Positions 3,743 to 62,663 of a stretch of DNA of 64,000 nucleotides are shown piece after piece. The translations under genes were made by a program, and so were the position numbers. Where the stretch lies: positions 779,537 through 843,536 of the forward strand of contig OY970181.1 of assembly GCA_963708045.1 (NCBI GenBank). Reading direction: 5' to 3'. The DNA comes from an uncultured bacterium. Its GTDB lineage: Bacteria; Patescibacteriota; Patescibacteriia; CAIQCM01. Numbering within the stretch: position 1 is the first letter of the stretch; each line of letters starts with the position of its first letter. The notes under the pieces were generated by a model. It was not told where the DNA came from, did not search any database, and was given only the letters and a program-made list of their open reading frames with translations.

Positions 3743-3745
3743 ATT

Positions 3746-6592: not shown

Positions 6593-6607
6593 CTCGAGGC
6601 TAATAAT

Positions 6608-6644: not shown

Positions 6645-6645
6645 T

Positions 6646-8139: not shown

Positions 8140-8143
8140 ATAT

Positions 8144-10659: not shown

Positions 10660-10701
10660 ATTTTTAGAAGAGATATGAAGAGTAAGCACAGAAATAAAAA
10701 T

Positions 10702-10763
10702 GCCCACCTCGCGGAGATGAGTCAAAATCTAAAAAGACTTTGGTTAATCTCTGCGAAGTGGGC
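10702..10763 (-). terminator. long stem-loop (17-bp imperfect stem) followed by a T-run on the minus strand
   Basis: 'gcccacctcgcggagat' (10702-10718) pairs with 'atctctgcgaagtgggc' (10747-10763) with 2 mismatches. On the minus strand the stem is followed by 'attttta ttt'. It lies between the 149-aa minus-strand ORF and the ParB-MTase gene. Confidence 0.35.
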
Positions 10764-16545: not shown

Positions 16546-16555
16546 GATCACATAT

Positions 16556-17452: not shown

Positions 17453-17713
17453 TTTTTTCTTTTAAATCCTTATTTTTTTGATGGTAAGACACTACCCGCG
17501 AGACAGTCAAAACACCCTCGTTCTGTGTCTTTTTTGTCTCACGGTGACCCTCAAAACCGATGAGACCTAGGTGCCTCAAACTCTATCTTAAATACCCCAT
17601 AAAGGTTGAGCAAAATTCGGTTCAGTACCCACCCTGCGAGCCAGGAAAATTTCTTATCGTGCATACCCGCTTGCCCATGGCGACGGGGGTACCCGATTGG
17701 GTCTTGTCCGATA

Positions 17714-17741
17714 GACAAAACCGCCGAAAGGCGGTTTTGTC
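17714..17741. terminator. perfect 12-bp stem / GAAA tetraloop hairpin inside an ORF-free structured region
   Basis: 'gacaaaaccgcc' 'gaaa' 'ggcggttttgtc' is perfectly complementary. It lies within the 417-bp ORF-poor region 17460-17876. Confidence 0.5.
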
Positions 17742-17876
17742 GTATTGTCGTGGCGATTTTTTATACAGTCACCATTTTTTAGGACAAATGCGTGTCTCGG
17801 TTGCGCACGGAAGACGGTTGGGTGATAATGGAAGGGTCGAGAAAAAAATGATAAATACGGACCAGAGCATAAAGTT

Positions 17877-18401
17877 ATGTTAAGCAAAAAGGCATACATC
17901 GCCATGCGGGGTAAATATACACCAAAAAAGATAAGGGTGATTTTTGTTTTGGAGTCACCGCCCGAATCTGGAAAGTATTTTTATAATTTGAACGGAAAAA
18001 TTTCAGAACCCCTTTTTAGAGCAATGATGGGGTTAATCGGATGCAAGTCGTCCGATAAATCTTTAGGTTTGGCTGGATTTGTTAAGAGTGGATTTATTAT
18101 AGTCGATGCGACTTATGTGCCAGTAAATCACAGCAGAAACATAAGAGAACGCAATCAAGTTATATTGGAATCGTATCCAGACCTCGTTAAAGATTTACGG
18201 GCTGTTACTAAGAATAAAAAGACGCCTATTATTTTGGTTAAAGCGAATATCTGCGAACTTCTGGCCAATCCACTCAAGGCAGATGGTTTTAATGTTATAA
18301 ATGATGGAGTCAGAATTCCGTTTCCGGCATCAGGCCAGCAGACAAGGTTTCGAGAACGGGTTGCTGTGGTTTTTAAGAAAGCGGCACTAACCAAAAAATA
18401 A
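17877..18401 (+). CDS. hypothetical protein (174 aa)
   Basis: Clean ORF. 'VIFVLESPPESGKYFY' N-terminal segment. No confident family assignment. Confidence 0.45.
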   Translation: MLSKKAYIAMRGKYTPKKIRVIFVLESPPESGKYFYNLNGKISEPLFRAMMGLIGCKSSDKSLGLAGFVKSGFIIVDATYVPVNHSRNIRERNQVILESYPDLVKDLRAVTKNKKTPIILVKANICELLANPLKADGFNVINDGVRIPFPASGQQTRFRERVAVVFKKAALTKK

Positions 18402-20497: not shown

Positions 20498-21178
20498 ATG
20501 CCTAGACCTCCACGGATCAAAGCTCCAAATTTGTTATTTCACATTATGAATCGTGGAAATGGGCGACAGCGCGTCTTTTATTCTGATAAGGCGTACAAAG
20601 AATTTTATGAGATCATGATCCGTTATAAAAAATTGTTTCCAATCAAAATATTTCACTACGTTTTAATGCCTAATCATTTTCATTTGTTGGTTGAATCGGA
20701 AAACGAGACGGCGATTTCAAAGTTTATGCAACGCGTCACCTTGTCGCATACGCGCCGGTTTAACTTGAAATATCATACAGTTGGCCACCTGTGGCAAGGT
20801 CGATTTAAAAGCATTTTGATTGATTCTGATGAATACTATCTCCAATGCGGACGCTACATTGATCTAAATCCGATTCGTGCGAAATTGGTAGAACATCCGT
20901 CAGAGTGGCGTTGGAGTAGTTATGGGGCTTTGGCGAACGGCGCGAAAGAACAGCTTGTTGATTTTCATCCTCTGTATGTTGCTTTGGGAAATGATAAAAA
21001 TATTAGGCAAAAAAATTACGCGAGATTTGTTAAAATGGAAATAGATGCTTCGCGGTTAAATAATGCGATGCGTTTTTCGGAAAAATATTTTTATGGGAAA
21101 GATGAGTTTATCGAACAGATTAAAGAAAAATATTTTGTAGTCATCCCGCGTCCGAAGGCTGGTAGGCCGCGAAATTAG
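20498..21178 (+). CDS. tnpA: Y1/HUH tyrosine transposase (IS200-like / REP-associated tyrosine transposase family, Y1_Tnp)
   Basis: 'IFHYVLMPNHFHLLVE' is the HUH motif (H-F-H flanked by hydrophobics). 'WQGRFKSILIDSDEYYLQCGRYIDLNPIRAKLVEHPSEWRWSSY' contains the conserved catalytic-Tyr region of the IS200/RAYT family. Confidence 0.8.
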   Translation: MPRPPRIKAPNLLFHIMNRGNGRQRVFYSDKAYKEFYEIMIRYKKLFPIKIFHYVLMPNHFHLLVESENETAISKFMQRVTLSHTRRFNLKYHTVGHLWQGRFKSILIDSDEYYLQCGRYIDLNPIRAKLVEHPSEWRWSSYGALANGAKEQLVDFHPLYVALGNDKNIRQKNYARFVKMEIDASRLNNAMRFSEKYFYGKDEFIEQIKEKYFVVIPRPKAGRPRN

Positions 21179-41400: not shown

Positions 41401-44400
41401 TCCAAGGCCACACCCACCGCTTCAATCATCAATTCGCCGCAGGTATACACCGGCTCCTCGCAAACTGCGACTGTCGCTTGTTTGGGTGGAGGAACTGCCA
41501 CGCTTGCCTCAGGCGGAACCGGCACCAATGCGGGAACATATCCTGCAATCGTCAACTGCGCTGAAAGCACAAATTACAATGCAGCCACAGGCCTCTCGGC
41601 AGGAAACTTCGTCATTGAAAAAATAACTCCAACTGCCTCCATCACCAACACGCCTCGGTCATACAACGGCTCGGCGCAAACCGCCACGGTGGTATGTTTG
41701 GGCGGAGGAACTGCCACGCTTGCCTCAGGCGGAACCGGCACCAATGCGGGAACATATCCTGCAATCGTCAACTGCGCCGCGAGCACCAACTATAACACCG
41801 CCTCGGGACTTTCAGCAGGCGATTTCGTAATCTCTAAGATTGCTCCGACCGCTTCCATCACCAATACACCTCAGCCATACACTGGTTCCTCGCAAACTGC
41901 CGCTGTCGCTTGTTTGGGTGGAGGAGTAGCAACGATTGCGACCGGTGGTACTGGTACTGATGCAGGTTCATACGCAACCACGGTTGATTGTGCTACGAGC
42001 ACCAATTACTCCGCCGCCACAGGACTCTCGGCCGGAAATTTCGTCATCTCTAAAGTAACTCCAACTGCCTCCATCACCAACACACCACAGTCATACAATG
42101 GCTCAGCTCAGACGGCCGTCGTTGCTTGTTTGGGTGGAGGCGCCGCTACAATAAACACGGGTGGAACTGGCACAAGCGCTGGTTCATACGCAACCACCGT
42201 TGACTGCGCCACGAGCACCAATTATTCCGCAGCTACGGGACTTTCGTCAGGGAACTTTGTCATCTCTAAAATTGCTCCAACAGCTTCCATAACCAACTCG
42301 CCTCAGTCGTACACCGGTTCGTCGCAAACGGCGGCCGTGTCTTGCTTGGGCGGGGGCGCTGCCACGATTAATACAGGCGGAACCGGAACTGACGCGGGAA
42401 CATATCCGGCCACGGTTGACTGCGCCACAAGCACCAACTACTCCGCCGCTACGGGACTTTCGGCTGGAAATTTCGTCATCTCCAAAGCAACTCCTACGGC
42501 TTCCATCACCAATTCGCCTCAACCATATACCGGCTCAGTTCAGACCGCCATCGTTGCTTGTTCGGGCGGAGGTGTTGCCACGCTTGCCTCAGGCGGAACT
42601 GGAACTGATGAAGGTACATATCCTACAATCGTCAACTGCGCTGAAAGCGCCAACTACTCAGCCGCTACGGGACTTTCGGCAGGTGACTTCGTTATTGGAA
42701 AAATAAACCCGACCGCTTCCATCACCAATACGCCACGGTCATACAACGGCTCAGCTCGAGACGGCGACTGTCGTCTGTACGGGCGGGGGCACTGCTACAA
42801 TAAACACTGGCGGAACTGGAACTAACGCCGGATCGTATGCGACCACAGTTGATTGTGCCGCAAGCGCTGGTTACTTCGCAGCCACGGGACTTTCAGCAGG
42901 AAACTTTGTTATTGAAAAAATAGCTCCAACTGCCTCCATCACCAACTCACCACGGTCATACACTGGTTCAGCCCAAACAGCGAACGTTGCTTGTTTAGGT
43001 GGAGGCACCGCTACAATAAACACCGGTGGAACTGGCACTAATGCGGGAACATACGCAACCACGGTTGATTGTGCTACGAGCACCAATTACTCCGTCGCCA
43101 CAGGACTCTCGGCCGGAAATTTCGTCATCTCTAAAGTAACTCCGACAGCTTCCATAACCAACTCACCCCAAACACACACTGGCTCGTCTCAAACTGCCGC
43201 GGTTTCTTGTTTGGGCGGAGGTGTCGCAACGATAAACACAGGCGGAACCGGAACTAATGCGGGAACATACGCAACCACAGTTGATTGTGCCACGAGCACC
43301 AACCACTCCGCAGCCACCGGACTTTCAGCAGGCGACTTCGTTATCTCCAAGGCCACTCCAACTGCTTCTATCACCAATTCGCCGCAGCTATATAACGGTT
43401 CGGCTCAAACGGCCGTCGTGTCTTGTTTGGGTGGAGGTGTTGCGACGCTCGCATCTGGCGGAACCGGCACTAATGCTGGAACATATGCCGCAGTCGTCAA
43501 CTGCGGCACAAGCACTAACTACTCCGCCGCCACGGGACTTTCGGCAGGAAACTTTGTCATTGAAAAAATAACTTCAACTGCTTCCATAACCAACTCGCCC
43601 CAAACATACACCGGCTCGGCGCAAACCGCGAACGTCGCTTGCTTGGGCGGAGGTGCCGCTACAATAAACACCGGTGGAACTGGCACTAACGCCGGGTCAT
43701 ATGCGACCACTGTTAACTGCGCCACGAGCACTAACTACAGCGCGGCCTCGGGACTCGCGGCGGGCGACTTCGTAATCTCTAAAGCGACTCCGACTGCTTC
43801 CATCACCAACACACCCCAGACATACACTGGTTCCGCTCAAACCGCGAACGTTGCTTGCTTGGGCGGAGGCGTTGCGACTCTTGCCTCAGGTGGAACTGGA
43901 ACTGATGCAGGTTCGTATGCGGCCACCGTCAACTGCGCCGAAAGTGCTAACTACTCAGCGGCTACAGGACTCTCGGCGGGAAACTTCGTCATCGGCGCTA
44001 CCCCAGTGGTAATCAGCGTTGCGGCAATACCCGGAGTCACGATCCCTGTGAGAGCAGTAACTCCAGTGTCAACTATAGCTGACACTGGTGAATACACCGC
44101 GACAATTACATGGTCGCCTGTAAGTAATCCATTTGCAGCAAACACCGTTTATACGGCAACAATTACGATCACGCCCAATGCGGGTTATACCTTAACAGGT
44201 ATAGCAAGTAATTTCTTTACAGTAGCTGGAACAAGTATTCCAGCTACAAATTCAGCAGGATCTGGGGTGGTCACGGCAGTATTTCCGGCGACGGGATCTG
44301 CGCCTTCTAGCGGTGGCGGTGGCGGCGGCGGTGGTGGCGGCGGGTATTATGTTCCACCACCAATCGCTCCGGTTGTTTCTGTTACGCCCCCTGTGTTGAC

Positions 44401-45070
44401 TCCGGCTCCGGTTGTTCCTGTTACACCCACCGAGACTTCTCCAACTCCAACTCCAGCTCCAGCGGTTTCTGATCAGGATAAATTCAAAAAGAATTTAACC
44501 TACCTCACAACGAACTCGGATATACGCGAGTTGCAAAAATATTTTAACGCAAACGGCTTCATAGTTGCATCAAGAGGCGCTGGTTCGCCAGGCAAGGAAA
44601 CGGATTATTTCGGCGATTCAACCTTAAGCACTCTCATTAAATTCCAAGAAGCAAATAAAGATAAAGTTGTTGGATTAATTGATGAAAAAGGATATTTTGG
44701 TCCGATAACTCGACAATTGATCAATACGATAATAATCACAAATCCAACTCCAGCTCCAGCGGTTTCTGATCAGGATAAATTCAAAAAGAATTTAACCTAC
44801 CTCACAACGAACTCGGATATACGCGAGTTGCAAAAATATTTTAACGCAAACGGCTTCATAGTTGCATCAAGAGGCGCTGGTTCGCCAGGCAAGGAAACAG
44901 ATTATTTCGGTGATTCAACCTTAAGCACTCTCATTAAATTCCAAGAAGCAAATAAAGATAAAGTTGTTGGATTAATTGATGAAAAAGGATATTTTGGTCC
45001 GATAACTCGACAATTGATCAATACGACAATAATCACAAATCCAACTCCAGCTCCAGCCCAGCAACCCTAA
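29470..45070 (+). CDS. giant (about 15.6 kb) cell-surface repeat protein gene, reading frame interrupted by four +1 shifts (near 33690, 38222, 38871 and 42757). It is either a pseudogene or an indel/assembly error in the repeats
   Basis: Signal peptide 'MKKVFGTILLVVLVLVGFLEHVPNASA' at 29470. The protein theme then continues without stops across frame 1 (to 33738), frame 2 (to 38287), frame 3 (to 38936), frame 1 (to 42825) and frame 2 (to 45070). Domains: a duplicated roughly 230-aa N-module, five Fn3-like roughly 97-aa repeats plus two Fn3 domains, a PHP domain, about forty 72-aa repeats, a poly-Gly/Pro linker and 2 x PG_binding_1. Confidence 0.7.
30229..31392 (+). repeat. four tandem roughly 291-bp Fn3-like repeats (a fifth copy at about 32383-32676)
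   Basis: Repeated 'PTVTASAAS.IT..GA.L.GNIT..GG..ATARGFHYG.T.SYGSTS.TSG.YGTG.Y.Q.I.GLTCNTLYHYRSFATNSGGTGTS'. Confidence 0.7.
33600..34130 (+). other. PHP (polymerase and histidinol phosphatase) phosphoesterase domain embedded in the giant protein, split by the first frameshift
   Basis: Frame 1 carries 'NLHGHTTNSDGAQT' (PHP motif I, D/N-L-H-x-H-T-x-x-S-D-G). Frame 2 continues 'YLNLGYSAAAITDHDYF' (motif II, AITDHD) with the expected spacing of about 27 aa. Later come 'NMEVFNSHYG' and 'LVANDDLHT' (the G-S-D-A-H-like motif). Confidence 0.55.
34700..43990 (+). repeat. about 40 tandem 216-bp (72-aa) repeats with two conserved Cys per unit (count estimated from length, not counted exactly)
   Basis: Unit consensus 'PTASITN[ST][PS][RQ][SP]Y[NT]GS[AS]QTA[TN]VAC[LT]GGG.AT[IL][NA][TS]GGTGT[NDS]AG[ST]YA..V[DN]CA[TA]STNYSAATGLSAG[ND]FVI[ES]K[IA]'. 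Several subtypes are present. There are long near-identical blocks, e.g. 38221 vs 38870 (period 649 = 3x216+1). Confidence 0.8.
44455..45036 (+). repeat. near-identical tandem duplication (2 x about 291 bp) encoding peptidoglycan-binding (PG_binding_1-like) domains
   Basis: 'PTPAPAVSDQDKFKKNLTYLTTNSDIRELQKYFNANGFIVASRGAGSPGKETDYFGDSTLSTLIKFQEANKDKVVGLIDEKGYFGPITRQLINT' occurs twice with only a few synonymous nucleotide differences. The pattern matches PG_binding_1 (L..G....DG.FG..T..A...FQ...GL..DG..G..T...L). Confidence 0.6.
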
Positions 45071-45095: not shown

Positions 45096-45145
45096 CATAA
45101 ACGCACTCATCCCGACGACCATCGGGGCGGTTAATCTTTATAAGT

Positions 45146-45175
45146 AAAAAGCACCACGCAAACGGTGCTTTTTGC
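45146..45175. terminator. rho-independent terminator hairpin
   Basis: 'aaaaagcacc' 'acgcaaac' 'ggtgcttttt' has a 7-bp stem with an A-run upstream and a T-run downstream. Confidence 0.55.
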
Positions 45176-45212
45176 GTAGGTATAAATGTCTCAAACTTTG
45201 GGCGAAGACATC

Positions 45213-45241
45213 TTGACTTTTTGCCGAAAAAATGCTTAAAT
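45213..45241 (+). promoter_or_regulatory. sigma70-like promoter TTGACT-N17-TTAAAT upstream of the GC-rich gene
   Basis: 'ttgact' at 45213-45218, a 17-nt spacer, 'ttaaat' at 45236-45241. The ATG is at 45300. Confidence 0.35.
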
Positions 45242-45299
45242 GCAACTTCTTCTGCCACAGCAATAACGCTCTTTTTATGCGGAAGAAAAAGGAAAAATC

Positions 45300-47126
45300 A
45301 TGATACGTAAAAGTAGCGATGGAAGGCGCGAAATCGTTCGCAGTATTAACGGAACGCCTCATGGCGGTCATTTGGAAACATTGGCCAAATTGGCTTTCGC
45401 GGTCATGCTGGTCGTGAACTTGCTGTCCTGGATGAATCAACGGTCTAAGCACGAGGTAGTCGCGACTCAGCACGGAGACATTGCGGCTTTGCACAAGGCC
45501 GAAGCGGCCTTTCAGACTTTTCAGTCCAAAGGAAATGCTTGGACGATTGATGATCTGGTCAACGTGCGAAACACACTCGTCACGATCCGCGATGCCGAGG
45601 GACACAGCCAGTCCGTAAGCACACGCATTGACGCGCTAGTTCAGGCCTCGGTCGGGAAAACTCTTGATGCGCTCAATAGTGCGGCGGCCGCATCTATTAC
45701 TGTGAAAGAAAGGATCGTTACTCAGGGTCGGGTGGAAAGGGTGCGAAGCGAACTGTTTTCTCACCCCCCATTTCAACCGGTCTTCGCGGGCGGTTTCGGA
45801 CATATTCTTTGGGCGCTGGCCAAGCTGGGCGGCAAGACCTACTTGCTGTTCATGTCGTTTGCGCTTCTCTGTTTTCTGGCGCGGGTATCAAGGAACCGGT
45901 TGTCACTCAGTGACGAATTGATGTTCGGGTTTCGGCGTCTCGCCGTTTCAACGGTCTTTTGGCCGGCTGGGATGTCCGAGTATCCGCGCGATACGGCCTT
46001 CGTGTTGCGTCGCCAGAAGATCGCCAAGGAATATTTGGTGCGGCATGGTAGAAGTGTTTGGGACTCGCTTACTGAAATGGATCAACGCGCCATTGACCGA
46101 CTGGTCATGCAGCCGCTCACTGAACTGCGTCAAAGTCTGGACGCGATTCGCGAACTCCCGTTCCGTCTCGTGCTCAAAGCCCGTCTCGCGTTCTGTGTCT
46201 CAGTGTTCGCGAGTTACATGCTTACGGTGACCACTTTCGGTCGCAGTACGGCTCATGCGGCGGAAAATACCGCGGTTACCGACGTGGCGGCGCAAGTCAC
46301 CACGCCTTCGCAAGATGCGCCGGAGGTTCCCCAACCGCTCAGTCTGAGCGGTTTTACGCAAGTTTCGGCGAACATGGAGAACGGCAACACCAAAGCCGAA
46401 CGCATGTTTATCCGAGGCGTTAGCGGCCCGTTCAAAGGACTAACTGTTAACTTAATGGGCAATGTCGTGAATCCGGCCTTGCTTATTGCTCAGGCAGTTT
46501 ACCGGCGCGGTTCAATTAGTGTCGGCGCCGGACAGATTGTCTACCCATCGGCGCTCCAGGTTCCTTCTCCGGACGGGCAAAGGATTATTGGCGGCCCGCT
46601 GTGTCAAAGTCTGATTCCTTTCTGGGGACTTGGCGCGGAAGTGCTCGGGGATCATGGGGTGGTTAAGTGGGGATTGGCGTATTTGTCCGAAACCGATCTT
46701 GGTGCACCAGGAGTCCGCAAACCGCGTTCGGCTCAAGCAGCGCTCTCTTTGCCAAAATTGGGACCATTTGGTTTACTGGTCACGGCAACCGTTGGCAAAG
46801 ATGACGCAGGAATACATGCCTATTATTCGGCAATGGCAAACCTCCATCTCGGCCCAGTTGATGTGGTTGGCAATGGCGTCCTCAACAAAGACGCGGGCGT
46901 CTTTTCCAAAGGAGTAACGGGTTTCCTCGGCTGGCATTTCACCCCGCATTTAGATGTTACGGGGCAATTCGACCGGCTCGAAGTTCCCAACGCTCCCGTG
47001 AATCAGCGCTTCGGGTTGCAAATCACTGCGCTTGGCTGGACAGATCGTCTGAGACTCGGAATCCTTGGATTCAGAAGCTCAGTCGCCGGCCTTGGTTCGC
47101 TCATGCGCTTGCAGTTCGCATTCTGA
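45300..47126 (+). CDS. hypothetical protein (608 aa) in a visibly GC-richer segment. The C-terminal third has beta-barrel/porin-like alternating hydrophobicity and ends in '...LQFAF'
   Basis: 1.8-kb ORF. Internal TM-like helices ('HILWALAKLGGKTYLLFMSFALLCFLARV'). C-terminal aromatic residue. GC is clearly higher than the flanks by eye (not computed). All competing ORFs are short. Confidence 0.4.
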   Translation: MIRKSSDGRREIVRSINGTPHGGHLETLAKLAFAVMLVVNLLSWMNQRSKHEVVATQHGDIAALHKAEAAFQTFQSKGNAWTIDDLVNVRNTLVTIRDAEGHSQSVSTRIDALVQASVGKTLDALNSAAAASITVKERIVTQGRVERVRSELFSHPPFQPVFAGGFGHILWALAKLGGKTYLLFMSFALLCFLARVSRNRLSLSDELMFGFRRLAVSTVFWPAGMSEYPRDTAFVLRRQKIAKEYLVRHGRSVWDSLTEMDQRAIDRLVMQPLTELRQSLDAIRELPFRLVLKARLAFCVSVFASYMLTVTTFGRSTAHAAENTAVTDVAAQVTTPSQDAPEVPQPLSLSGFTQVSANMENGNTKAERMFIRGVSGPFKGLTVNLMGNVVNPALLIAQAVYRRGSISVGAGQIVYPSALQVPSPDGQRIIGGPLCQSLIPFWGLGAEVLGDHGVVKWGLAYLSETDLGAPGVRKPRSAQAALSLPKLGPFGLLVTATVGKDDAGIHAYYSAMANLHLGPVDVVGNGVLNKDAGVFSKGVTGFLGWHFTPHLDVTGQFDRLEVPNAPVNQRFGLQITALGWTDRLRLGILGFRSSVAGLGSLMRLQFAF

Positions 47127-47140
47127 TAGCGAGTAACTTA

Positions 47141-47195
47141 ATCAGATCTTTAGCCTCCGACTCTCCTCCTAGATAACATCAAAGGGGAGAGTTTT
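47141..47195 (+). repeat. 55-bp direct repeat, copy 1, containing a terminator-like hairpin
   Basis: 'atcagatctttagcctccgactctcctcctagataacatcaaaggggagagtttt' is identical to 47654-47708. Internal stem 'gactctcc'/'ggagagt' followed by T's. Confidence 0.7.
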
Positions 47196-47313
47196 TTATT
47201 TGTTAAAAATGCTAATAATGCTGGCTGGACAAACGCGGGTGGGTAGTTGACAAATGTCATTTAAAATGGTACTAATTTGCCGTGTCGTGTTAGAAAAACA
47301 CAGGAGGTTCCGA

Positions 47314-47601
47314 ATGCGTACGCTCAAAGGTCTTTGTATTTTCTTTGTCGTGTCTTTGTCATTGTTTTCTGGGTGCGGAAGCAGCACCGGGATTGTCAAA
47401 TTGGACGACAATCTTTACATCACCAGTAAGACAGATATGATGGTTGGTTCAGGGACAAAACTCAAGATGTCGCTTTATCCTGGGGCGGTAGATTTTTGCC
47501 AGTCTATGGGCAAAAAGATGGAGGTTGTCTCAACTCAACAAAGCGACATGGATGAGAATAAGTCGTGGGCTGGAGCGGAGTTACAATTCCGTTGCAAATA
47601 A
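47314..47601 (+). CDS. small lipoprotein (95 aa)
   Basis: SD 'aggagg' 6 nt upstream of ATG 47314. 'MRTLKGLCIFFVVSLSLFSGC' is a signal peptide with lipobox. It lies exactly between the two 55-bp direct repeats. Confidence 0.55.
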   Translation: MRTLKGLCIFFVVSLSLFSGCGSSTGIVKLDDNLYITSKTDMMVGSGTKLKMSLYPGAVDFCQSMGKKMEVVSTQQSDMDENKSWAGAELQFRCK

Positions 47602-47653
47602 TCAGCACTATGACTGTCGTGGATTCCTTCACTGTCACCAAATAGTAGTTTCT

Positions 47654-47708
47654 ATCAGATCTTTAGCCTCCGACTCTCCTCCTAGATAACATCAAAGGGG
47701 AGAGTTTT
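47654..47708 (+). repeat. 55-bp direct repeat, copy 2
   Basis: Identical to 47141-47195. Confidence 0.7.
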
Positions 47709-47838
47709 ATATTAATTCTAAATGTCAATAATAGACACGACCCTTTATTTGATAGCTGTTAGCAAAGGCTGACAGCTATTTTGTTTTAAAATACTTACAT
47801 TTTCTTTTTATTCTACAAAAATGTTATAGTTAATAACT

Positions 47839-54903: not shown

Positions 54904-56055
54904 ATGAAAAAACAATATTTTAAAGGATTTGCGGTTTTGGCTTTTGTTTTAGCCCTTGCGCCAAGCATGGCCGTGGCCGCTGAATTTCGCGGCGAGTCAT
55001 CGGGAACAATGAGCGTTAACGAAGCGGTTAACGACGACCTTTATGCCGGTGGCAGCAGTGTGTCGCTTGTGGCGCCAATTGCCGGTGATGCCGTTTTGGG
55101 CGGGGGCAACGTTTTTGTCTCGGGAGAAGTAAAAGAAAGTATTTTGGCGGCTGGCGGAACGGTTGTTGTGTCAGGGAACGTTGCCGATGATGTCCGTGTT
55201 CTTGGTGGAAATATTATTTTGACCGGGGAAGTGGCGCACGATGTTGTCGTGCTGGGCGGACAAATTAATATTTCGCCATCGGCGATGGTGGGAAAGGATC
55301 TGGTTGTTTTAGGCGGAATGGTAACAATAGACGGCGCGGTTAAGGGGAACGTATTTGTGCGGGGAGGGGACGTAGTAATCAACGCGCCAATCGGCGGATC
55401 GGTTAATGCTAAAGGAAAAACAATAACCTTAGGGTCAAAAGCGTCAATCGGCGGAAAATTAATTTATTCCAGCCAGAACGAATTAACTATTGGTAGTGGC
55501 ATAGTTGGCGGCGGGGTTGAATATAATAAAATGATAACCAAAGAGGTAAAAGATGTGAGGGGTGAGTTTGCTGGTTTGTTGTTTGCTGGCTTCTTATTAA
55601 AAATAATCTCACTCCTTGTTTTGGCTCTTATCGTAACAGCCATCTTTAAAAAGCGTTCCCTTGCATTAACGCAAAACGCGCTTAATTCATTTGGTTGGAA
55701 TATTCTCTACGGTTTTGCGGCGATGGTTTTAGTTCCAGTTGCCGCGATTCTTTTACTCATCACACTTATCGGAATGCCGTTCGCGATGATCGCGATGTGC
55801 GTATATTGCATTCTCCTCGCGCTCGCGGGAATATTTGCGCCGGTTATCATTGGCAGCTGGGCGTGGAAACGCATAAGCAAAGCCTCGGCCTATCCAGTAA
55901 ATACCTACTCAATTCTTATTGGTGTGGTTATCTTTGCTATTCTTGGCCTCATTCCGATTATCGGCTGGCTCTTTGGTTTTATCTTTGTACTTGTAGCCCT
56001 AGGCACGCTTACGCGCGCTCTCGCACTTGGTCTTACGGCGGCAATTAAACGCTAA
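54904..56055 (+). CDS. bactofilin-like beta-helix repeat protein with N-terminal signal peptide and C-terminal multi-TM region
   Basis: Signal 'MKKQYFKGFAVLAFVLALAPSMAVA'. Repeated 'VLGG.I.L.GEV..DV.VLGG' is a bactofilin/DUF583-like beta-helix repeat pattern. About 4 C-terminal TM helices. Confidence 0.55.
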   Translation: MKKQYFKGFAVLAFVLALAPSMAVAAEFRGESSGTMSVNEAVNDDLYAGGSSVSLVAPIAGDAVLGGGNVFVSGEVKESILAAGGTVVVSGNVADDVRVLGGNIILTGEVAHDVVVLGGQINISPSAMVGKDLVVLGGMVTIDGAVKGNVFVRGGDVVINAPIGGSVNAKGKTITLGSKASIGGKLIYSSQNELTIGSGIVGGGVEYNKMITKEVKDVRGEFAGLLFAGFLLKIISLLVLALIVTAIFKKRSLALTQNALNSFGWNILYGFAAMVLVPVAAILLLITLIGMPFAMIAMCVYCILLALAGIFAPVIIGSWAWKRISKASAYPVNTYSILIGVVIFAILGLIPIIGWLFGFIFVLVALGTLTRALALGLTAAIKR

Positions 56056-56184
56056 AATTCTTTTTTAAAAAACGCTTGGTTTTTTATACAGCTCGTTTAT
56101 AGGAATGGGCTGTATTTTTTATACACAACCGTGTTGTGGTATTTAGTGTAGCGCGGTAAAATACATTTATTGATATATATTTAA

Positions 56185-57186
56185 ATGAAAAACGACATTC
56201 TTTTAAAAATTGAAAAAGCCGGACTGGTGGGGCGGGGTGGAGCGGAATATCCAACGGCTAAAAAATGGCAAGAGGTTGGTCGCGCTTTGGGCGCGCAAAA
56301 ATTCGTCGTCTGTAACGCGAGCGAAGGGGAGATTGGTCTCTTCAAAGATCTTTATATTTTAAAGACTTATCCCGAAATGGTTGTTAAGGGAGTAATTTTG
56401 GCGCTGGATTTTTTGGGTTCCAAGGACGCGTTTTTTAATTTGAACAAACGATATTTTAAAATGATTGGTTCTAGGCTCGCGCCAATTATTAAAAAATACA
56501 ACCACCAAGGATATAACATTAAAATTTTTGTTGAAGAGCCGAGTTATATTGGTGGCGAAGAAACAGCGCTTCTTAACGCAATAGAAGGCAAGCGTACCGA
56601 ACCGCGTCAAAAGCCGCCGTACCCGTCAAATGCCGGCCTCTATGGCGCCCCAACGCTTATTAACAACGTTGAAACGCTTTACAACATCGCTTGCGTTCAC
56701 GACGGCACGTTTGCGAACAAACGTTTCTATTGTCTTTCTAAAAGCGGAAAAAAAATCGGCGTGTATTATTTGCCCGACAATTGGGATATAGAAAAAATTT
56801 TGAAAGAAACAAAAAATTATCCCAACTATAAATTTTTCGTTCAGGTCGGCGGTAGCGCTTCGGGAATTGTTTTTGACGAAAGCCAGATTAAAGGCAAGCT
56901 CGCAACTGGCGCCGCCGCGCTTGATATTCATAATAAAAATGAAGCCCCAAGAAAGGTTCTTTTAAACTGGCTTAAATTTTACCAGCAGGAAAGTTGCGGT
57001 AAATGCACCCCTTGCCGCGTCGGCACTTTTGAACTTTACGAAATGGTGAAGAAAAATAAAAATATTCCTTGGAAAGAAATGTTTGAAATTTTGGAAACAA
57101 TGGACGCGACTTCGTTTTGTGCCCTTGGCCGTTCGGTTAGCGTGCCGATTAGGTCTTATTATTCCAATGTCTTAAAACTGAAATGA
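56185..57186 (+). CDS. NuoF-like NAD(H)-binding FMN/4Fe-4S subunit (hydrogenase diaphorase-type subunit)
   Basis: 'GLVGRGGAEYPTAKKW', 'VVCNASEGEIGLFKD', 'YIGGEETALLNAIEGKR', 'SCGKCTPCRVG' and 'FCALGR' are all NuoF/HoxF family motifs. It overlaps hydA by 4 nt. Confidence 0.8.
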   Translation: MKNDILLKIEKAGLVGRGGAEYPTAKKWQEVGRALGAQKFVVCNASEGEIGLFKDLYILKTYPEMVVKGVILALDFLGSKDAFFNLNKRYFKMIGSRLAPIIKKYNHQGYNIKIFVEEPSYIGGEETALLNAIEGKRTEPRQKPPYPSNAGLYGAPTLINNVETLYNIACVHDGTFANKRFYCLSKSGKKIGVYYLPDNWDIEKILKETKNYPNYKFFVQVGGSASGIVFDESQIKGKLATGAAALDIHNKNEAPRKVLLNWLKFYQQESCGKCTPCRVGTFELYEMVKKNKNIPWKEMFEILETMDATSFCALGRSVSVPIRSYYSNVLKLK

Positions 57187-58898
57187 AAAAAGTCACAGTC
57201 AGCGTTAACGGCAAAAAGTTTTCTGTTCCGCTAGGCGAAAACATTTTAGCGGTGGCGATTAAAAACGGAATAGATATTCCGCATTTTTGCTATCACGAAG
57301 ATTTACCAATCGGATCAAGTTGCCGAACGTGTTTAGTTGAAGTTAAAAAAACCGGCAAAGTTGTTACCTCGTGTACGCTAAAAGCCGAAAGTGGGCTCGT
57401 GGTTTTTACCGATACGCCCAAGGTTAAGGAGTTGCGCCTAAAAAACTTAGAATTACTGCTCGCCGGACACCAAGAAAAATGCCCCAAGTGCCAAAAGGGG
57501 ATTTATTGCCGCGTTGCCGAACAAATTGGCAAATACGGCGTTTCCACGGTCAAATATTGGCGGCCGGAGATTCAAGAAAAACTTCACAAAATGAGCCAAG
57601 CGGCGCTAATAGATCCTCAACTTTGCATTGGTTGTAATAAATGCGTAGAAATTTGCGATAAGATCGGAATAGGATTTTTGGAAATGAAAGGGAAAAATAT
57701 CCAAACGCACGCCACTTGGACGCGCGATCCTAAAATTGATTGCATTTATTGCGGCCAATGCACGGTTCATTGTCCGGTTGGTTCGGCGCGCGAACAAAAC
57801 GAGATTGAAGATGTTGAAAAAGCTCTTCAAGACAAAAATAAAATCGTCATCGCGCAAATGGCGCCATCGGTTCACGCCAGTCTTGGCGAAGAGTTTGGTT
57901 TGCCAATCGGCACCGATGTGACGGGACGAATTTATACAGCGTTCCGCAAGTTAGGTTTTGATAAAGTTTTTGACGTTAATATGGGCGCCGACATTACAAC
58001 CGTGGTTGAAGCGGCCGAGCTCGCCGAACGGATAAAGGAAAACAAAAATTTGCCGATGTTTACGTCGTGTTGTCCAGCCTGGGTCAAGTTTATGGAGTTT
58101 TATCATCCGGAAATGTTGAGTCATTTAACGACCGCGCGTTCGCCGCAGATTCACTCGGCCGGCGCTTACAAAACTTGGTGGGCAAAAAAGGAAGGAATTG
58201 ATCCGAAAAAAATCGTCATTGTTTCGTTTATGCCGTGCACTTCCAAAAAATATGAAGCGCGGCATAAAAAACTTAAAATTAACGGGATGCAACTCGTGGA
58301 TCACGTTCTTACGACGCGCGAGTTTGGCGCCCTTCTTAAAAAACACAAAATTGATTTGCCAAATTTGAAACCAAGTAAAGTTGATCTTCCGGGAACCTAC
58401 TCAGGCGCGGCGGCGATTTACGGCGCTTCGGGCGGCGTTATGGAATCGGCTCTGCGAACGGCTTATTTTAATATTACGGGCAAGGAATTAAAAAACGTAA
58501 ATTTTAAAGCGGTTCGTGGTATAGAAGGAATCAAAAAGGCGCAAATCAAACTCCCGGGCGGCCGGGTGCTAAAGGTGGCCGTTGCCTCCACCGCCGCCAA
58601 TGCCGAAAAAATAATTCAAGAAATTAAAAAAGATAAAAACGCCTACGATTATCTAGAAGTAATGGCTTGTCCGGGTGGTTGTATTGGCGGCGGCGGTCAG
58701 CCGATTCCGACGACCTTAAACATCGTCGCCAAAAGAATTGAATCGCTTTACAAAATAGATTCAAAAATGAAATTAAGAAAAGCTCATCTTAATCCAGTAG
58801 TGCGCGATTTTTTTGACAATTACATTGCGCGCCTTAGTCCTGCAGAAAAGAAAAAAATTCTTTACACCTCATATTCCCGTAAAAAGAAATTTGAATAA
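57183..58898 (+). CDS. hydA: [FeFe]-hydrogenase large subunit HydA (M3-type with N-terminal 2Fe-2S and 4Fe-4S domains)
   Basis: H-cluster motifs L1 'FTSCCPAW', L2 'MPCTSKKYE', L3 'EVMACPGGCIGGGGQP'. N-terminal 2Fe-2S 'CRTC' and two CxxCxxCxxxCP ferredoxin motifs. Confidence 0.85.
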   Translation: MKKVTVSVNGKKFSVPLGENILAVAIKNGIDIPHFCYHEDLPIGSSCRTCLVEVKKTGKVVTSCTLKAESGLVVFTDTPKVKELRLKNLELLLAGHQEKCPKCQKGIYCRVAEQIGKYGVSTVKYWRPEIQEKLHKMSQAALIDPQLCIGCNKCVEICDKIGIGFLEMKGKNIQTHATWTRDPKIDCIYCGQCTVHCPVGSAREQNEIEDVEKALQDKNKIVIAQMAPSVHASLGEEFGLPIGTDVTGRIYTAFRKLGFDKVFDVNMGADITTVVEAAELAERIKENKNLPMFTSCCPAWVKFMEFYHPEMLSHLTTARSPQIHSAGAYKTWWAKKEGIDPKKIVIVSFMPCTSKKYEARHKKLKINGMQLVDHVLTTREFGALLKKHKIDLPNLKPSKVDLPGTYSGAAAIYGASGGVMESALRTAYFNITGKELKNVNFKAVRGIEGIKKAQIKLPGGRVLKVAVASTAANAEKIIQEIKKDKNAYDYLEVMACPGGCIGGGGQPIPTTLNIVAKRIESLYKIDSKMKLRKAHLNPVVRDFFDNYIARLSPAEKKKILYTSYSRKKKFE

Positions 58899-58904
58899 TT
58901 TGCT

Positions 58905-59861
58905 GTGGCAATGGCAAAGTTTTTAAGAATCATAAAAATTTTTGTCGGCGTGATTGTGCTGGTTTTGCTCGCTGGTTTTTGGTATCTCTATTCGGATGAG
59001 ATTAAAAAAATCGCTGAGATAATTTATGCCAAAGCGCGGCCATGCGATAGGCCGATAACTTATGTCATTGGTACAATTGACCCGCGTTTTGGGCTAACCA
59101 AAGCCGAAGCGCAGAGCCGACTAAAAGAGGCTGAAATGATTTGGGAAGAACCGATTGTAAAAAATTTATTTGAGTATTCGGAAACGGGCGTCTTAAAAAT
59201 AAATTTTATTTATGACGAACGGCAGCAGGCGACGGATGACCTTAAAAAAATTGGCTTAGTTATTGACGATAGTCGGTCGGCCTACGAAGCTTTAAAAGCC
59301 AGACAAGATCAAATGACTGCTTCGTATAATAAAGAAAAGGCCAAACTTGATAAAATGATCGCTGTTTTAAAAACTGATCAGAGTTCTTACGAAAAAGATA
59401 TTGCTTATTGGAACGCGCGCGGCGGCGCACCAAAAATGGAATACACCCTTTTGGAAAATAAACGAACCAATTTAAATAATCAAGTCGCGGCTATTAACCA
59501 AGAACAAGAAAGTTTAAATAAACTGGCGGGAACGATCAATTCGGCAAATATTGTTCTAAATAAAATGATTGATTCGTTAAATTTAAAAATAAACAAATAC
59601 AATACGATTGGTTCGGGAACGGGAAAAGAGTTTAGAGAGGGTGTGTATACGTTAAGCGGGAGCGAACAGTCAATTGACGTCTTTCAATTTAACGACAAAG
59701 ACAAACTAGTGCGGCTGCTTGCTCACGAGTTTGGTCACGCGCTCGGGCTTGAACACGCAAGCGACCCCAAGGCGATTATGTATTATCTAAATGAGGGCGA
59801 AGACGAAAATTTTTCCGCTGCCGACCTTGCTGCCCTAAAAGCAGTTTGCGAAATAAAATAA
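58905..59861 (+). CDS. membrane-anchored metzincin (matrixin-like) zinc metalloprotease with coiled-coil region
   Basis: N-terminal TM 'IFVGVIVLVLLAGFWYL'. 'LAHEFGHALGLEHASDPKAIMYY' contains HExxHxxGxxH and a Met-turn-like 'AIMYY'. Confidence 0.65.
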   Translation: MAMAKFLRIIKIFVGVIVLVLLAGFWYLYSDEIKKIAEIIYAKARPCDRPITYVIGTIDPRFGLTKAEAQSRLKEAEMIWEEPIVKNLFEYSETGVLKINFIYDERQQATDDLKKIGLVIDDSRSAYEALKARQDQMTASYNKEKAKLDKMIAVLKTDQSSYEKDIAYWNARGGAPKMEYTLLENKRTNLNNQVAAINQEQESLNKLAGTINSANIVLNKMIDSLNLKINKYNTIGSGTGKEFREGVYTLSGSEQSIDVFQFNDKDKLVRLLAHEFGHALGLEHASDPKAIMYYLNEGEDENFSAADLAALKAVCEIK

Positions 59862-59914
59862 TAGACGTGGTATAATCAATAAATCTAGCTTTAAACTTGA
59901 CGCGAAAATAAACT

Positions 59915-60304
59915 ATGGAATCAGAAGCTGAAAGACGGGTGGCAGAAAAATTGCGAGAGTATGCCGAGGCGTCAAAAGATAATAAAAAGGTAGACAAGGC
60001 GGCGCTCGCGATTGCGGCTTTGGAAACGCCGATTTTTGAAAATCGCGTTTCTGCCAAGATGAAAAAGTGGGCGTATTTAATTTCGCTCGGTTTGCCACCG
60101 TTTGGGCTTGTTTTTTCCGTCTACTACTATTTTTCAGAAAAATCCGACGGCAAACGGGTCGCGATTATTTGTGCAATTGTTACGCTTATTGGTGTGTTAA
60201 TGTTTTGGCTGGCACTGTCTTCAATCTTTTCCTCCATTCCGAAAGAGTCGCTTGATCAACTAAAAACGCTTCAACCTAACGACATAAACAGTCTTTTGCA
60301 ATAA
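59915..60304 (+). CDS. hypothetical small membrane protein (129 aa)
   Basis: Two TM helices in the C-terminal half. Confidence 0.4.
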   Translation: MESEAERRVAEKLREYAEASKDNKKVDKAALAIAALETPIFENRVSAKMKKWAYLISLGLPPFGLVFSVYYYFSEKSDGKRVAIICAIVTLIGVLMFWLALSSIFSSIPKESLDQLKTLQPNDINSLLQ

Positions 60305-60494
60305 TTTTTTAAACAATGTTTTTAAATCAGAAGAACTGGATCTTGTATTAAAAGTAAGTGTTTTTATGTTGCAAAATTACATATTTTTTGCTATGATTTG
60401 AGCGGTTTAATGTCTTCAAAATTAATTGAGGCATACGTCAAACAATATGAAAAAGATCGTTGAGTTACTGAACCTTGCAAAAAATAAATCAAAA

Positions 60495-61997
60495 ATGAAA
60501 ATCTTGTTTGTTACGAGCGAAGAAGCGCCGTTTGCCAAAGTGGGTGGGCTTGGCGAAGTCATTTTTTCTTTACCGCGCGCGCTTAATCGCCTTGGCCACG
60601 ACGCTAGAGTAATGATGCCGCTTTACGGAACCGTTGATTTAGAAAAATTTAAACTTTCTTATATACACAAAGATTTGCAAGTTCCAACCTCGTCCGAAAG
60701 CGACACGAAAAATTTAGTTTGCAACGTACGACGATACAAACCGAAAGATTTAAGCAAAGATCCGGTCATGACTTATTTTTTAGAAAATAGGGAATATTAC
60801 GAATTGCGGTCAAATGTTTATGGTTATACTGACGACCGTATTCGTTTTGCGCTGCTTTCTCGCGGTTGTCTTGAATTTTTAAACACATCGTCGGAATGGT
60901 TGCCGGACGTTATTGTTTGCGCCGATTGGATGACCGGCTATTTGCTTAATTATTTTAAACTTGAATATAAAGACAGCAAAAAATTGCGCGGCATTGCCAC
61001 GGTTTTGTCCATCCATAATTTGCAAGGGCAAGGAACGGAAAAGCCTCAGCGCTTTATTTCGGAAATGCAAAGAGACGACGGGCACGGACCGATTCCAGAT
61101 TTTTTTGACGACCGCTTGAAAAACATCAATGCGATGAAACGCGGAATTATGTATGCCGACGTTGTGAACACTGTTTCTTCAACATACGCCAAAGAAATTA
61201 CTACCGAAGAATATGGCGAAGGGCTTGAAGATCTTTTGAGCGAAAAACGGGAAAAGCTCTACGGAATTTTAAACGGCATTGACTACGAAACAAACAATCC
61301 GGCGACCGATAAATGCGTTTCTGCTAAATTCACCACGCACAATCTTGAAGATCGCGAAGAAAATAAAGCCGTCCTGCAAAAAAGAATGGGCTTGCCGCAA
61401 AAGAAGGACGCGTTCGTTATGGGTATTGTTTCCAGAATCACCCGGCAAAAAGGTTTTAATCTGCTTCAACCGATTATAGAACCATTTTTAAAGATCACCG
61501 GTTCGCAGCTTATCGTTGTTGGGACAGGGGATCCGGAAATAATGGATTTCTTTATTGCTTTAGAAAAGAAATTTCCTGAGCAAGTGGTCGCATTTATGCA
61601 ATTTGACGCTGAATTGCCGCATCTTATTTATTCCGGCTGCGACGTTTTGCTTATTCCTTCCAAGTTTGAACCCTCGGGTTTGACGCAGATGGAGGCAATG
61701 CGTTTTGGCGCAATACCGATTGCGAGAAAAACCGGCGGCCTAGCCGACACAATTGACGATTTTGATCCAAGTAAGGGAAACGTGGGAACGGGATTTCTTT
61801 TTGAAAATATGGACGCCCAAGAGCTTCTTATTGCGTTAACTAGAGCTTATACCAATTGGCAACATCGGACAGATTGGAAAAAATTGCAAAAACGGGCGAT
61901 GGAAAAAGATTTTTCCTGGGATCATTCGGCTAAAGAATATGCCATTCTGTTTCAAAAAGCGATTAATGGTCTAAAAAATGACAAAACGACGCATTAA
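60495..61997 (+). CDS. glgA: glycogen (starch) synthase
   Basis: 'MKILFVTSEEAPFAKVGGLGEV' matches the GlgA N-terminal signature K-V-G-G-L-G-D/E-V. GT-B C-terminal 'E..G..Q' region ('FEPSGLTQMEAMRFG'). The track start is 60426. The ATG at 60495 is preferred. Confidence 0.85.
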   Translation: MKILFVTSEEAPFAKVGGLGEVIFSLPRALNRLGHDARVMMPLYGTVDLEKFKLSYIHKDLQVPTSSESDTKNLVCNVRRYKPKDLSKDPVMTYFLENREYYELRSNVYGYTDDRIRFALLSRGCLEFLNTSSEWLPDVIVCADWMTGYLLNYFKLEYKDSKKLRGIATVLSIHNLQGQGTEKPQRFISEMQRDDGHGPIPDFFDDRLKNINAMKRGIMYADVVNTVSSTYAKEITTEEYGEGLEDLLSEKREKLYGILNGIDYETNNPATDKCVSAKFTTHNLEDREENKAVLQKRMGLPQKKDAFVMGIVSRITRQKGFNLLQPIIEPFLKITGSQLIVVGTGDPEIMDFFIALEKKFPEQVVAFMQFDAELPHLIYSGCDVLLIPSKFEPSGLTQMEAMRFGAIPIARKTGGLADTIDDFDPSKGNVGTGFLFENMDAQELLIALTRAYTNWQHRTDWKKLQKRAMEKDFSWDHSAKEYAILFQKAINGLKNDKTTH

Positions 61998-62018
61998 TAA
62001 TCAATAAAACAATTTATT

Positions 62019-62663
62019 ATGAAACTGAGAAAATCAGAAGTATTAAATTTGTTGCTTATTGTCATCGCTTTTGGCGCGGCTGCATATTTTTATCCGTCAC
62101 TCCCCGAAAAAGTCGCTTCGCATTGGGATATTAATGGGCAGGTAAATGGTTATATGGGGCGTTTTTGGGGCGCGTTTTTTGTTCCCGTCATTGCCCTCGC
62201 GTTAAATATTTTATTCATTATCATCCCGCGCATTGATCCTAAGAAAAATAATATTGAAAAATTCAGAAAGAATTTTGACTGGTTTGTTTTTTTAATGTTG
62301 CTTTTTATTTTATATATTTACGCCTTAACGCTGTTTTTTGCTTTCGGCTATCGGTTTAATATGAGCCAGCTAATGATTCCCGCTTTTTCGGTTCTGCTTT
62401 TCGCGCTCGCGATGCTTGTTTCTGGCGCCGAACCAAATTGGAGTATTGGCATAAGAACGCCGTGGACGCTTTCAAGCGAAATTGTTTGGCGAAAGACGCA
62501 TCTTTTAGGAAGTAAGTTGTTTACTATCGCGGCGCTAATTACGCTTCTTGGTATGTTTTTTCCGAAGCAGGCGGCTTGGTTTGTTCTTGCACCGATTTTG
62601 TTTAGTATGATATTTTTAGTCGCGTATTCGTATTTTGAATACATAAAAATTTCAAAAAAATAA
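62019..62663 (+). CDS. SdpI/YhfL-family membrane protein (DUF1648 + SdpI-like)
   Basis: 'YPSLPEKVASHWDINGQVNGY' (DUF1648-like) and 'GIRTPWTLSSEIVWRKTH' (SdpI signature). Four to five TM helices. Confidence 0.55.
   Translation: MKLRKSEVLNLLLIVIAFGAAAYFYPSLPEKVASHWDINGQVNGYMGRFWGAFFVPVIALALNILFIIIPRIDPKKNNIEKFRKNFDWFVFLMLLFILYIYALTLFFAFGYRFNMSQLMIPAFSVLLFALAMLVSGAEPNWSIGIRTPWTLSSEIVWRKTHLLGSKLFTIAALITLLGMFFPKQAAWFVLAPILFSMIFLVAYSYFEYIKISKK

Follow-up and report, generated by a model that had tools for sequence, protein, structure and literature searches.

A candidate membrane module-porin precursor of a rare protein family, followed by an apparently inserted lipoprotein gene, in a low-GC bacterial genome

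Porin barrels are signature proteins of outer membranes, and their presence or loss has been used to trace the transition from diderm to monoderm cells. Within the barrel, the constriction loop L3 sits between strands 5 and 6. The gene described here lies in a 64,000-nt stretch of contig OY970181.1 (assembly GCA_963708045.1, forward-strand positions 779,537 to 843,536), hereafter the window, to which our coordinates refer. It occupies positions 45300 to 47126 on the plus strand, starts with ATG and encodes a protein of 608 amino acids (aa) with a predicted three-transmembrane (3-TM) module, internal signal peptide, linker and 16-stranded porin-fold barrel. A survey lists the clade formed by Chloroflexi, the CPR (Candidate Phyla Radiation) and Dormibacteraeota as monoderm and without porins, and treats the CPR as having lost porins and S-layer homology (SLH) domains alike (10.1101/2021.05.31.446380); the treatment of the CPR as monoderms whose porins were lost is found in that work and in PMC8871954. 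Our literature searches for porins or barrels in Patescibacteria yielded no account of a protein like this one.

The account that we favour, with moderate confidence, is that the 608-aa gene is intact and resident in its lineage, that it belongs to a rare family of envelope proteins made as precursors joining a membrane module to a porin, and that a lipoprotein gene was inserted behind it at a later time.

A rare family with a predicted porin-fold barrel

The 608-aa protein had no match in Pfam or NCBIfam at E ≤ 1, and the family profile found no sequence match in the PDB. Apart from the protein itself, a word-indexed search of 5.8 billion proteins returned a single homologue, 53% identical, and a rerun with the family profile gave nothing further. 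When 1.84 billion cluster representatives were searched exhaustively with HMMER, 26 matches were obtained at E ≤ 1e-3, some 10 of them full length (594 to 624 aa) and 22 to 52% identical to the window protein. Because of these full-length homologues, the family can be taken as real and the open reading frame (ORF) as intact. Pattern-based scans of GTDB species genomes (protein, then profile) and of IMG/VR recovered no relative, which is weak evidence since they require an exact peptide pattern. Judged by these searches, the family is very rare, and it is unnamed.

A structural model of the protein was built with AlphaFold (AF2) on an alignment of 11 sequences. The model has helices over residues 2 to 312, a disordered linker at 305 to 341 and 16 beta strands at 345 to 607, with a predicted local distance difference test score (pLDDT) of 73.9 overall, ∼80 to 90 in the barrel and below 50 in the linker. 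The C-terminal ∼265 residues are predicted to form an antiparallel 16-stranded beta-barrel, as in porins, and the best fold matches of the model are diffusion porins, not polysaccharide secretins. One face of the predicted strands is hydrophobic (+1.48) and the opposite face polar (−0.52), a dyad pattern of hydrophobicity. When hydrophobicity was averaged over the family, the C-terminal domain gave a period-2 signal of 8.71 compared to 4.78 ± 0.83 for shuffles, a value reached by none of 500, whereas the N-terminal domain of the family profile favours a helical period. The only long loop, at residues 415 to 441, bears a helix and lies between strands 5 and 6, which makes it by position a candidate equivalent of L3; its VPxPxxxR[LI]IGGP motif is the best conserved of the barrel. 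The protein ends in ...LMRLQFAF, with a terminal Phe in all 10 sequences that reach the C-terminus and a nearly invariant Gln at position −4, a C-terminus of the beta-signal type. The barrel domain as a whole (residues 345 to 608; 46332 to 47126, plus strand) can be summarised as 16 predicted strands, one long helix-bearing loop and a C-terminal [RQ]xQxxF. A first-pass annotation of this DNA had compared the last ∼250 residues, up to the final LQFAF, to outer-membrane beta-barrels, and the predicted strands, the dyad pattern and the period-2 signal agree with it. In the model, the porin reading is confirmed at the level of the fold and extends to a new fusion architecture.

The same data could be read differently, with a C-terminal domain that is not a membrane channel: it might instead be beta-rich and either soluble or associated with the wall, or AF2 may have over-predicted the barrel, and the protein would then sit in the cytoplasmic membrane and expose an extracellular domain, which is what one expects of a monoderm. 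The missing Pfam, NCBIfam and PDB sequence matches, the 11-sequence alignment and the lack of BAM or outer-membrane genes in ∼160 kb of related sequence are all compatible with this. We nevertheless consider it improbable, given that a 16-stranded barrel is too wide for a hydrophobic core, that the dyad hydrophobicity is conserved across the family and that the C-terminal Phe is conserved as well, along with a loop-3 equivalent whose topological position is the correct one. The distant HMMER matches speak in the same direction. Some have the N-terminal module alone (P0017, P0022, and P0024), while others join it to a shorter beta domain (P0018, which appears truncated or frame-shifted, and P0019, which ends in Phe) or to a full barrel (P0015 and P0021), and in P0015, P0019, and P0021 the beta domain that accompanies the module ends in an aromatic or hydrophobic residue (F or L). 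Since it is seen in these distant matches, the pairing of the module with an exported barrel is a recurrent one.

The N-terminal membrane module covers residues 1 to 289 (45300 to 46166, plus strand). It comprises a PHGGxxET motif, which we place in the cytoplasm, TM1 (∼25 to 46), a helical bundle (∼57 to 154), TM2 (∼176 to 195) and a basic helical region with an invariant FWPxG..YP..RR motif. Hydropathy shows three helices of transmembrane type, at ∼25 to 46, 176 to 195 and 290 to 314. In the third, a hydrophobic core of 19 residues lies between a basic n-region (KAR) and a c-region reading TAHA↓AE. An AxA follows this third helix in 10 of the 11 aligned sequences (AHA in the window protein and AYA, ARA or AKA elsewhere), and P0008 has ALA in the corresponding segment, with a slight shift of register. 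The signal-peptide-like helix (∼290 to 320) and the low-complexity linker that follows it (∼321 to 344) are encoded at 46167 to 46331 on the plus strand. A porin would be expected to carry its cleavable Sec signal peptide at the N-terminus; here the signal-peptide-like segment is internal and comes after the membrane module.

Because there are three such helices and the basic residues are concentrated between positions 196 and 295, we infer as the simplest topology one with the N-terminus inside and residues beyond 320 outside. TM1 would lead from the inside to an extracytoplasmic helical bundle (57 to 154) and TM2 back to the basic helical region in the cytoplasm, with the first ∼290 residues inserting into the cytoplasmic membrane. 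The third hydrophobic helix, with its AxA, would act as a complete Sec-type signal peptide that exports all downstream residues, and signal peptidase I probably cuts at the AxA. What is exported would be a short flexible linker and a compact 16-stranded barrel of porin fold, with an inward-folding loop-3 equivalent and the C-terminal Phe. The likely role of the barrel is that of a diffusion channel, filled with water, in a lipid layer beyond the cytoplasmic membrane; it would be made at a fixed 1:1 ratio with the inner-membrane module or remain tethered to it. As far as the sequence can tell, the gene looks like an ancient fusion between a gene for an inner-membrane protein and one for a classical porin precursor, with the signal peptide of the latter kept.

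Expression signals, composition, and ancestry of the 608-aa gene

A putative sigma-70-type promoter could be read from the sequence at 45213 to 45241 on the plus strand, with TTGACT at 45213 to 45218, a 17-nt spacer and TTAAAT at 45236 to 45241; a consensus scan missed it because the −10 hexamer does not have A at position 2. The same layout, TTGAC-N17-T(T/C)(A/T)AAT, and much of the spacer are kept upstream of the homologues at loci L001, L008/L009, and L006. The 5' untranslated region (5'UTR) holds a conserved hairpin, CUUCUGC...GCGGAAG (45249 to 45285, plus strand), just upstream of the Shine-Dalgarno (SD) sequence AAGGA at 45289 to 45293. This hairpin is found again, as CUUCYGC...GCGGAAG, at ∼4830 to 4866 of L001, ∼7015 to 7051 of L008 and ∼9950 to 9990 of L006, and RNAalifold on four loci gave 10 pairs, of which 4 show compensatory double changes. 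Promoter and 5'UTR are thus alignable even though the proteins of L001, L008/L009, and L006 are only 34 to 53% identical. Rfam gave nothing at gathering thresholds over the whole window, and the hairpin belongs to none of its families; it may act in cis regulation or stabilisation, as an element peculiar to this gene family. On the 3' side, the gene is followed by its 3'UTR and terminator (47141 to 47219, plus strand), with a hairpin at 47160 to 47192 and six T residues. The gene would be expressed from its own promoter, through the conserved 5'UTR hairpin and up to this hairpin/T-run terminator.

The GC content of the ORF is 0.550, while the mean of the window outside 29.4 to 47.1 kb is 0.421. 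The 200-nt flanks of the ORF are at 0.41 to 0.43 and the GC steps match its ends exactly, so the impression gained in the first reading, of a segment richer in GC than its surroundings, is borne out by computation and GC is not uniform. The gene is not unique in this respect, as the region between 30 and 44 kb has a GC content of 0.52 to 0.57, there because it encodes giant Thr/Gly/Ala-rich repeat proteins with a GC content at second codon positions (GC2) of 0.58 to 0.67. Four very large ORFs of 1450, 1586, 1023, and 619 aa, rich in Thr/Gly/Ala/Pro repeats and with this same GC2, lie on one strand between 29386 and 45070. The first contains fn3 domains and overlaps the second by ∼200 nt, and these two may be one gene split by a frameshift. 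The 619-aa ORF (43211 to 45070) carries an in-frame tandem duplication of its C-terminal PG_binding_1 module, visible as a 261-nt direct repeat with 99% identity and a spacing of 297 (44500 to 44760 and 44797 to 45057).

Sharp GC steps at both ends of an ORF, together with repeats at 47141 and 47654 that are longer than common k-mer sizes, are also what a chimeric assembly could leave behind, with the GC-rich and/or repeat-flanked segment mis-joined. We hold this to be extremely improbable. The steps fall exactly at the start and stop codons of an intact ORF, the promoter and terminator, which lie in the low-GC flanks, have conserved counterparts at homologues from independent assemblies, and gene order at the locus is collinear with that of L006. 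The identical protein is further found in an independent Logan assembly (ERR15459707), with 290 bp of DNA on its upstream and 44 bp on its downstream side; judging by distance alone, the Logan contig would end inside the two local repeats, in the manner in which a de Bruijn assembler would break.

Codon positions give a more detailed picture of the GC contrast. At third positions (GC3) the 608-aa gene reaches 0.58 against a window mean of 0.43, which is high (rank 3 of 50 window ORFs, z = 1.9) yet no extreme outlier; the remaining high-GC3 ORFs of the window are restriction-modification or mobile genes. At first (GC1) and second positions the values are 0.61 and 0.46, compared to 0.60 to 0.61 and 0.45 to 0.48 in the closest homologues. 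Family genes are richer in GC than their neighbours at five other loci as well, by +0.05 to +0.09 in GC1, +0.02 to +0.06 in GC2 and −0.02 to +0.10 in GC3; the differences in the window are +0.14, +0.08, and +0.15, respectively. All other contigs that bear the family have 52 to 66% GC, and the window represents the only low-GC genome known with it. Viewed by codon position, the contrast is mostly the conserved Ala/Gly/Val/Arg-rich composition of the family in one low-GC host. The leftover GC3 excess is hard to square with vertical descent alone because the protein differs by 48% from its nearest homologue, and it may stem from an old replacement by an allele out of a GC-richer relative, since partly ameliorated.

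The position of the gene was compared with that in L006, a 75-kb contig with a GC content of 0.54 that, going by a GlgA 67% identical to the GlgA of the window, is from a relative of the window organism. Five anchors are collinear between the two: an M23-peptidase domain, the family gene, a 383/408-aa protein, a 129/156-aa protein and SdpI, with GlgA relocated. Because of this collinearity, the 608-aa gene appears to occupy an ancestral position rather than a new island. The conserved order places window positions 54904 to 62663 against L006 positions 15676 to 18059 and 3970 to 5517 (383-aa, 129-aa, and SdpI-like proteins). The 383-aa and 129-aa anchors are adjacent in L006, whereas in the window they are separated by a NuoF-like/[FeFe] hydrogenase pair and an M10 peptidase gene. 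The two genomes are 12 points of GC apart despite 45 to 67% protein identity.

The edge features of a genomic island (mobility genes, a tRNA or an att boundary) are missing at the 608-aa gene, which is present at the collinear site of the related genome. There is no tRNA in the window, neither an integrase nor a transposase adjoins the gene, and the nearest recombinase is 29 kb away. The mobile genes of the window are two large serine recombinases (456 to 1766, minus strand, and 15223 to 16545, plus strand) and an IS200-like Y1 transposase (20498 to 21178, plus strand). Two clusters of DNA methylase/helicase genes, resembling restriction-modification systems and with a GC3 of 0.5 to 0.6, fall within 2009 to 10725; over its first third the window has the look of mobile and variable DNA.

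The horizontal acquisition proposed in the first-pass annotation is therefore not demonstrated, with the gene collinear in L006, its promoter and 5'UTR like those of its homologues and its GC1 and GC2 at the family norm, although a GC3 difference of +0.15 leaves some room for it. The promoter-gene-terminator unit, or the ORF alone, would in that case have come from a GC-richer organism, most likely when a resident orthologue was replaced by homologous recombination with an allele from a relative of ∼54% GC, the conserved promoter/5'UTR and terminator serving as recombination anchors. The GC3 rank among ORFs otherwise of restriction-modification or mobile type, an excess over the neighbours greater than the −0.02 to +0.10 of the five other loci and the GC content of every other family contig would fit an import. 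So would the nearest homologue (L001, 52 to 53% identity), which lies on a contig of 54% GC whose other genes have no counterpart in the window. The collinear position, the distance to any recombinase, the lack of island-type edges and the GC1 and GC2 values argue the other way, and no donor above 53% identity was present among the 5.8 billion proteins searched. A diderm donor, a stronger form of the idea, is a sub-case, and no diderm markers were seen around any family member. On balance we regard import as unlikely, and continue with a gene resident in its lineage.

A lipoprotein gene between two copies of a terminator

The 3'UTR and terminator of the 608-aa gene are present twice. Copy 1 (47141 to 47219) is perfect over 47141 to 47195, and copy 2 (47654 to 47732, plus strand) is perfect over 47654 to 47708, with its hairpin at 47673 to 47705, then TTTTATAT. 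In each copy the hairpin is formed by ACTCTCCTCC...GGGGAGAGT, and a T run follows. The two are identical at 55 of 55 nt and then at 17 of 24, giving 91% over 79 nt; the P value for the 17/24 match after the perfect part is ∼3e-4 to 8e-4, and the probability of finding all 7 mismatches confined to the final 24 of 79 positions is 2.4e-4. Two copies of the 55-nt repeat occur in the window where 0 are expected by chance. A GC-rich hairpin followed by a U run, 3' of a stop codon, marks the repeat as a candidate intrinsic terminator, which a simple terminator scan missed because the loop of ∼14 nt exceeds the limit of the scan. The L001 homologue is followed by the same hairpin with the same loop and the L008 homologue by the same stem with a different loop. 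Because these homologues carry it, the repeat can be identified as the terminator of the 608-aa gene itself, from which both copies derive. By eye, the 3'UTR flanks of L001 are no less similar to the flanks of copy 2 than to those of copy 1. No further copy was detected in the window, in 2.9 million viral contigs (IMG/VR) or in 241 million JGI metagenome records.

Between the copies lies a gene for a predicted lipoprotein of 95 aa (47314 to 47601, plus strand; GC 0.44). Its N-terminus, MRTLKGLCIFFVVSLSLFSG followed by the lipobox Cys, ends in the lipobox LFSG↓C, and the protein has a Cys pair, ...DFC...FRC. An AGGAGG at 47302 to 47307, 6 nt upstream of the ATG, provides a strong SD sequence, and a putative promoter is located before it (TTGACA at 47247 to 47252, 17 nt, TACTAA at 47270 to 47275; promoter and SD region 47247 to 47313, plus strand). 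This promoter, read from the sequence, combines a perfect −35 with a weak −10 and is absent from the consensus-scan list. A strong canonical intrinsic terminator (47751 to 47790, plus strand; 13-pair stem, 4-nt loop, T run) follows repeat copy 2 after 43 nt, so that the lipoprotein gene has two successive terminators on its 3' side. The only Rfam match at E ≤ 1 over 45100 to 47800, a sub-threshold one to ssnA (E = 0.1), falls on this terminator. Both the identical 55-bp direct repeats with their hairpins and the lipoprotein gene with a strong SD between them had been recognised in the first reading and are upheld here.

The lipoprotein has no significant family match in Pfam, NCBIfam or PDB sequences (YgdI/YgdR at E = 0.07 and YecR at E = 0.77), and its only homologue among the 5.8 billion proteins is P0005, with 53% identity, a conserved Cys pair and a candidate lipobox reading ...LTSTS↓C. 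P0005 is encoded on contigs of ∼60% GC (L003 1 to 2496 and L005 1 to 1727) that come from an unrelated-looking organism and lack the repeat. Among its neighbours, secreted proteins rich in Cys and a fragment of a sigma-54-type regulator (activator) could be seen by eye. The host of P0005 is probably a very different, probably diderm, organism, and the lipoprotein gene may have crossed a wide taxonomic distance.

At all seven family loci with readable downstream DNA the lipoprotein gene is absent. Together with the identity of the repeat as the terminator of the 608-aa gene, this supports, at the level of sequence comparison, an insertion specific to the window genome in the 3'UTR of that gene, in line with the duplication or insertion event that had been suggested. 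The lipoprotein gene, with its own promoter and SD, would have been inserted by recombination within the terminator region, duplicating the terminator. This could have been a single crossover in which the resident terminator recombined with a diverged copy that came along with the lipoprotein gene, or, alternatively, a duplication followed by conversion; either fits because the identical core has homologous but diverged arms. A transposon target-site duplication was rejected since 55 to 79 bp is far too long, and so was a tandem duplication of a 513-bp unit, since the unit is repeated at its ends only.

The layout of ORF, repeat, ORF, and repeat resembles an array of two cassettes, and a perfect 55-bp core with diverged arms resembles attL and attR, which could make the repeats the attachment sites of a small mobile cassette, either integron-like attC sites or a site-specific att core. 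This is very doubtful. An integron cassette was rejected for want of IntI and of core sites, no RYYYAAC/GTTRRRY being visible by eye in the repeat. No tyrosine integrase is nearby, and the only recombinases are the large serine recombinases at 0.5 to 1.8 kb and 15.2 to 16.5 kb. The repeat is, moreover, homologous to the single terminator of the L001 and L008 orthologues, its arms are 71% homologous rather than unrelated, and no other copy exists in the window, the viral contigs or the metagenome records. On the view that recombination at the terminator inserted the gene, the duplicated terminator offers a small, clean case of one gene being placed in the 3'UTR of another.

Host envelope and comparison with known systems

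The window lies on a contig of 1,188,223 bp. Many of its ORFs have no family match; among the others are a pilin with a fused Laminin-G domain, giant surface proteins that end in peptidoglycan-binding domains, proteins with TSP3 repeats, bPH and SdpI domains and a NuoF-like protein with an [FeFe] hydrogenase. Gene content and the 1.19-Mb contig suggest a host that is CPR/Patescibacteria-like or another Terrabacteria monoderm. No outer-membrane biogenesis domain was found in the scanned window ORFs or in the precomputed annotations of L006, L007, and L013, although 64 kb of 1.19 Mb cannot show absence. A distant family gene in L013 (3387 to 17897) is located among FtsI, a Mur ligase, MraY, FtsW, and MurG, and another distant member in L011 (14535 to 15551) is near cell-wall/division genes. 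These neighbourhoods hint at a link to envelope synthesis.

Several points weigh against the account that we favour. The GC3 of 0.58 against 0.43 is an excess greater than that at any other family locus, the model rests on a shallow alignment of 11 sequences and nothing at sequence level in Pfam, NCBIfam or the PDB ties the protein to any porin family. The cut by signal peptidase at the internal signal peptide is an assumption, the insertion mechanism is drawn from one locus and neither the scanned window ORFs nor the related loci have an Omp85/BamA or other outer-membrane biogenesis gene. The affiliation to CPR/Patescibacteria, finally, comes only from the 1.19-Mb contig and the gene content.

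If this affiliation holds, a small-genome lineage believed to be single-membraned would make a true porin-type barrel, equipped with a signal peptide and a C-terminal signal of outer-membrane style, together with an inner-membrane module from one precursor. Its cells might keep an outer lipid layer, or might plant the pore in the envelope of the cell that they live on and tap its contents. We put this forward tentatively and think it rather unlikely. The protein would then represent either a relic or re-use of outer-membrane biology where it is unexpected or a candidate tool with which ultra-small epibionts reach into their hosts. Even with ordinary diderm hosts, a precursor composed of a membrane module, an internal signal peptide and a porin would be an undescribed architecture in an unnamed family.

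Among described proteins, the trimeric outer-membrane porins with 16 strands (OprP/Porin_O_P as well as OmpF/OmpC/OmpU/PorB/Omp32) have no detectable sequence relationship to the 608-aa protein. Its barrel, known here from prediction, is very compact by comparison (∼264 aa), the signal peptide is internal and preceded by a 290-aa polytopic membrane module, and no outer-membrane machinery was seen in the available context of the gene. OmpM-type SLH-porins of diderm Terrabacteria (Veillonella OmpM1 and the cyanobacterial and Deinococcus SLH-barrel proteins) have a peptidoglycan-binding SLH domain where the N-terminal part is here a membrane-embedded module with three hydrophobic helices, and the Pfam scan gave no SLH or CsaB signal. 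The cytochrome-porin fusion Cyc2 could be ruled out as an identity, as the protein has only 3 Cys and no CxxCH haem motif. In PgaA, BcsC, and PelB a helical periplasmic domain precedes a 16-stranded barrel; no tetratricopeptide repeat (TPR) was detected in the 608-aa protein, whose N-terminal domain is membrane-integral and precedes the signal peptide instead of following it.

For the lipoprotein gene, the repeat of 55 to 79 bp is far longer than a transposon target-site duplication. It differs from an integron gene cassette in that no tyrosine recombinase was found and in that the repeat, by eye without attC core sites, corresponds to an orthologous terminator. No recombinase, circular intermediate or donor locus was identified. 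The likeness to Campbell-type integration or duplication at a short homologous sequence is that the inserted gene is flanked by direct repeats that come from a pre-existing target, the terminator of the upstream gene, with homologous but diverged sequence bordering an identical core.

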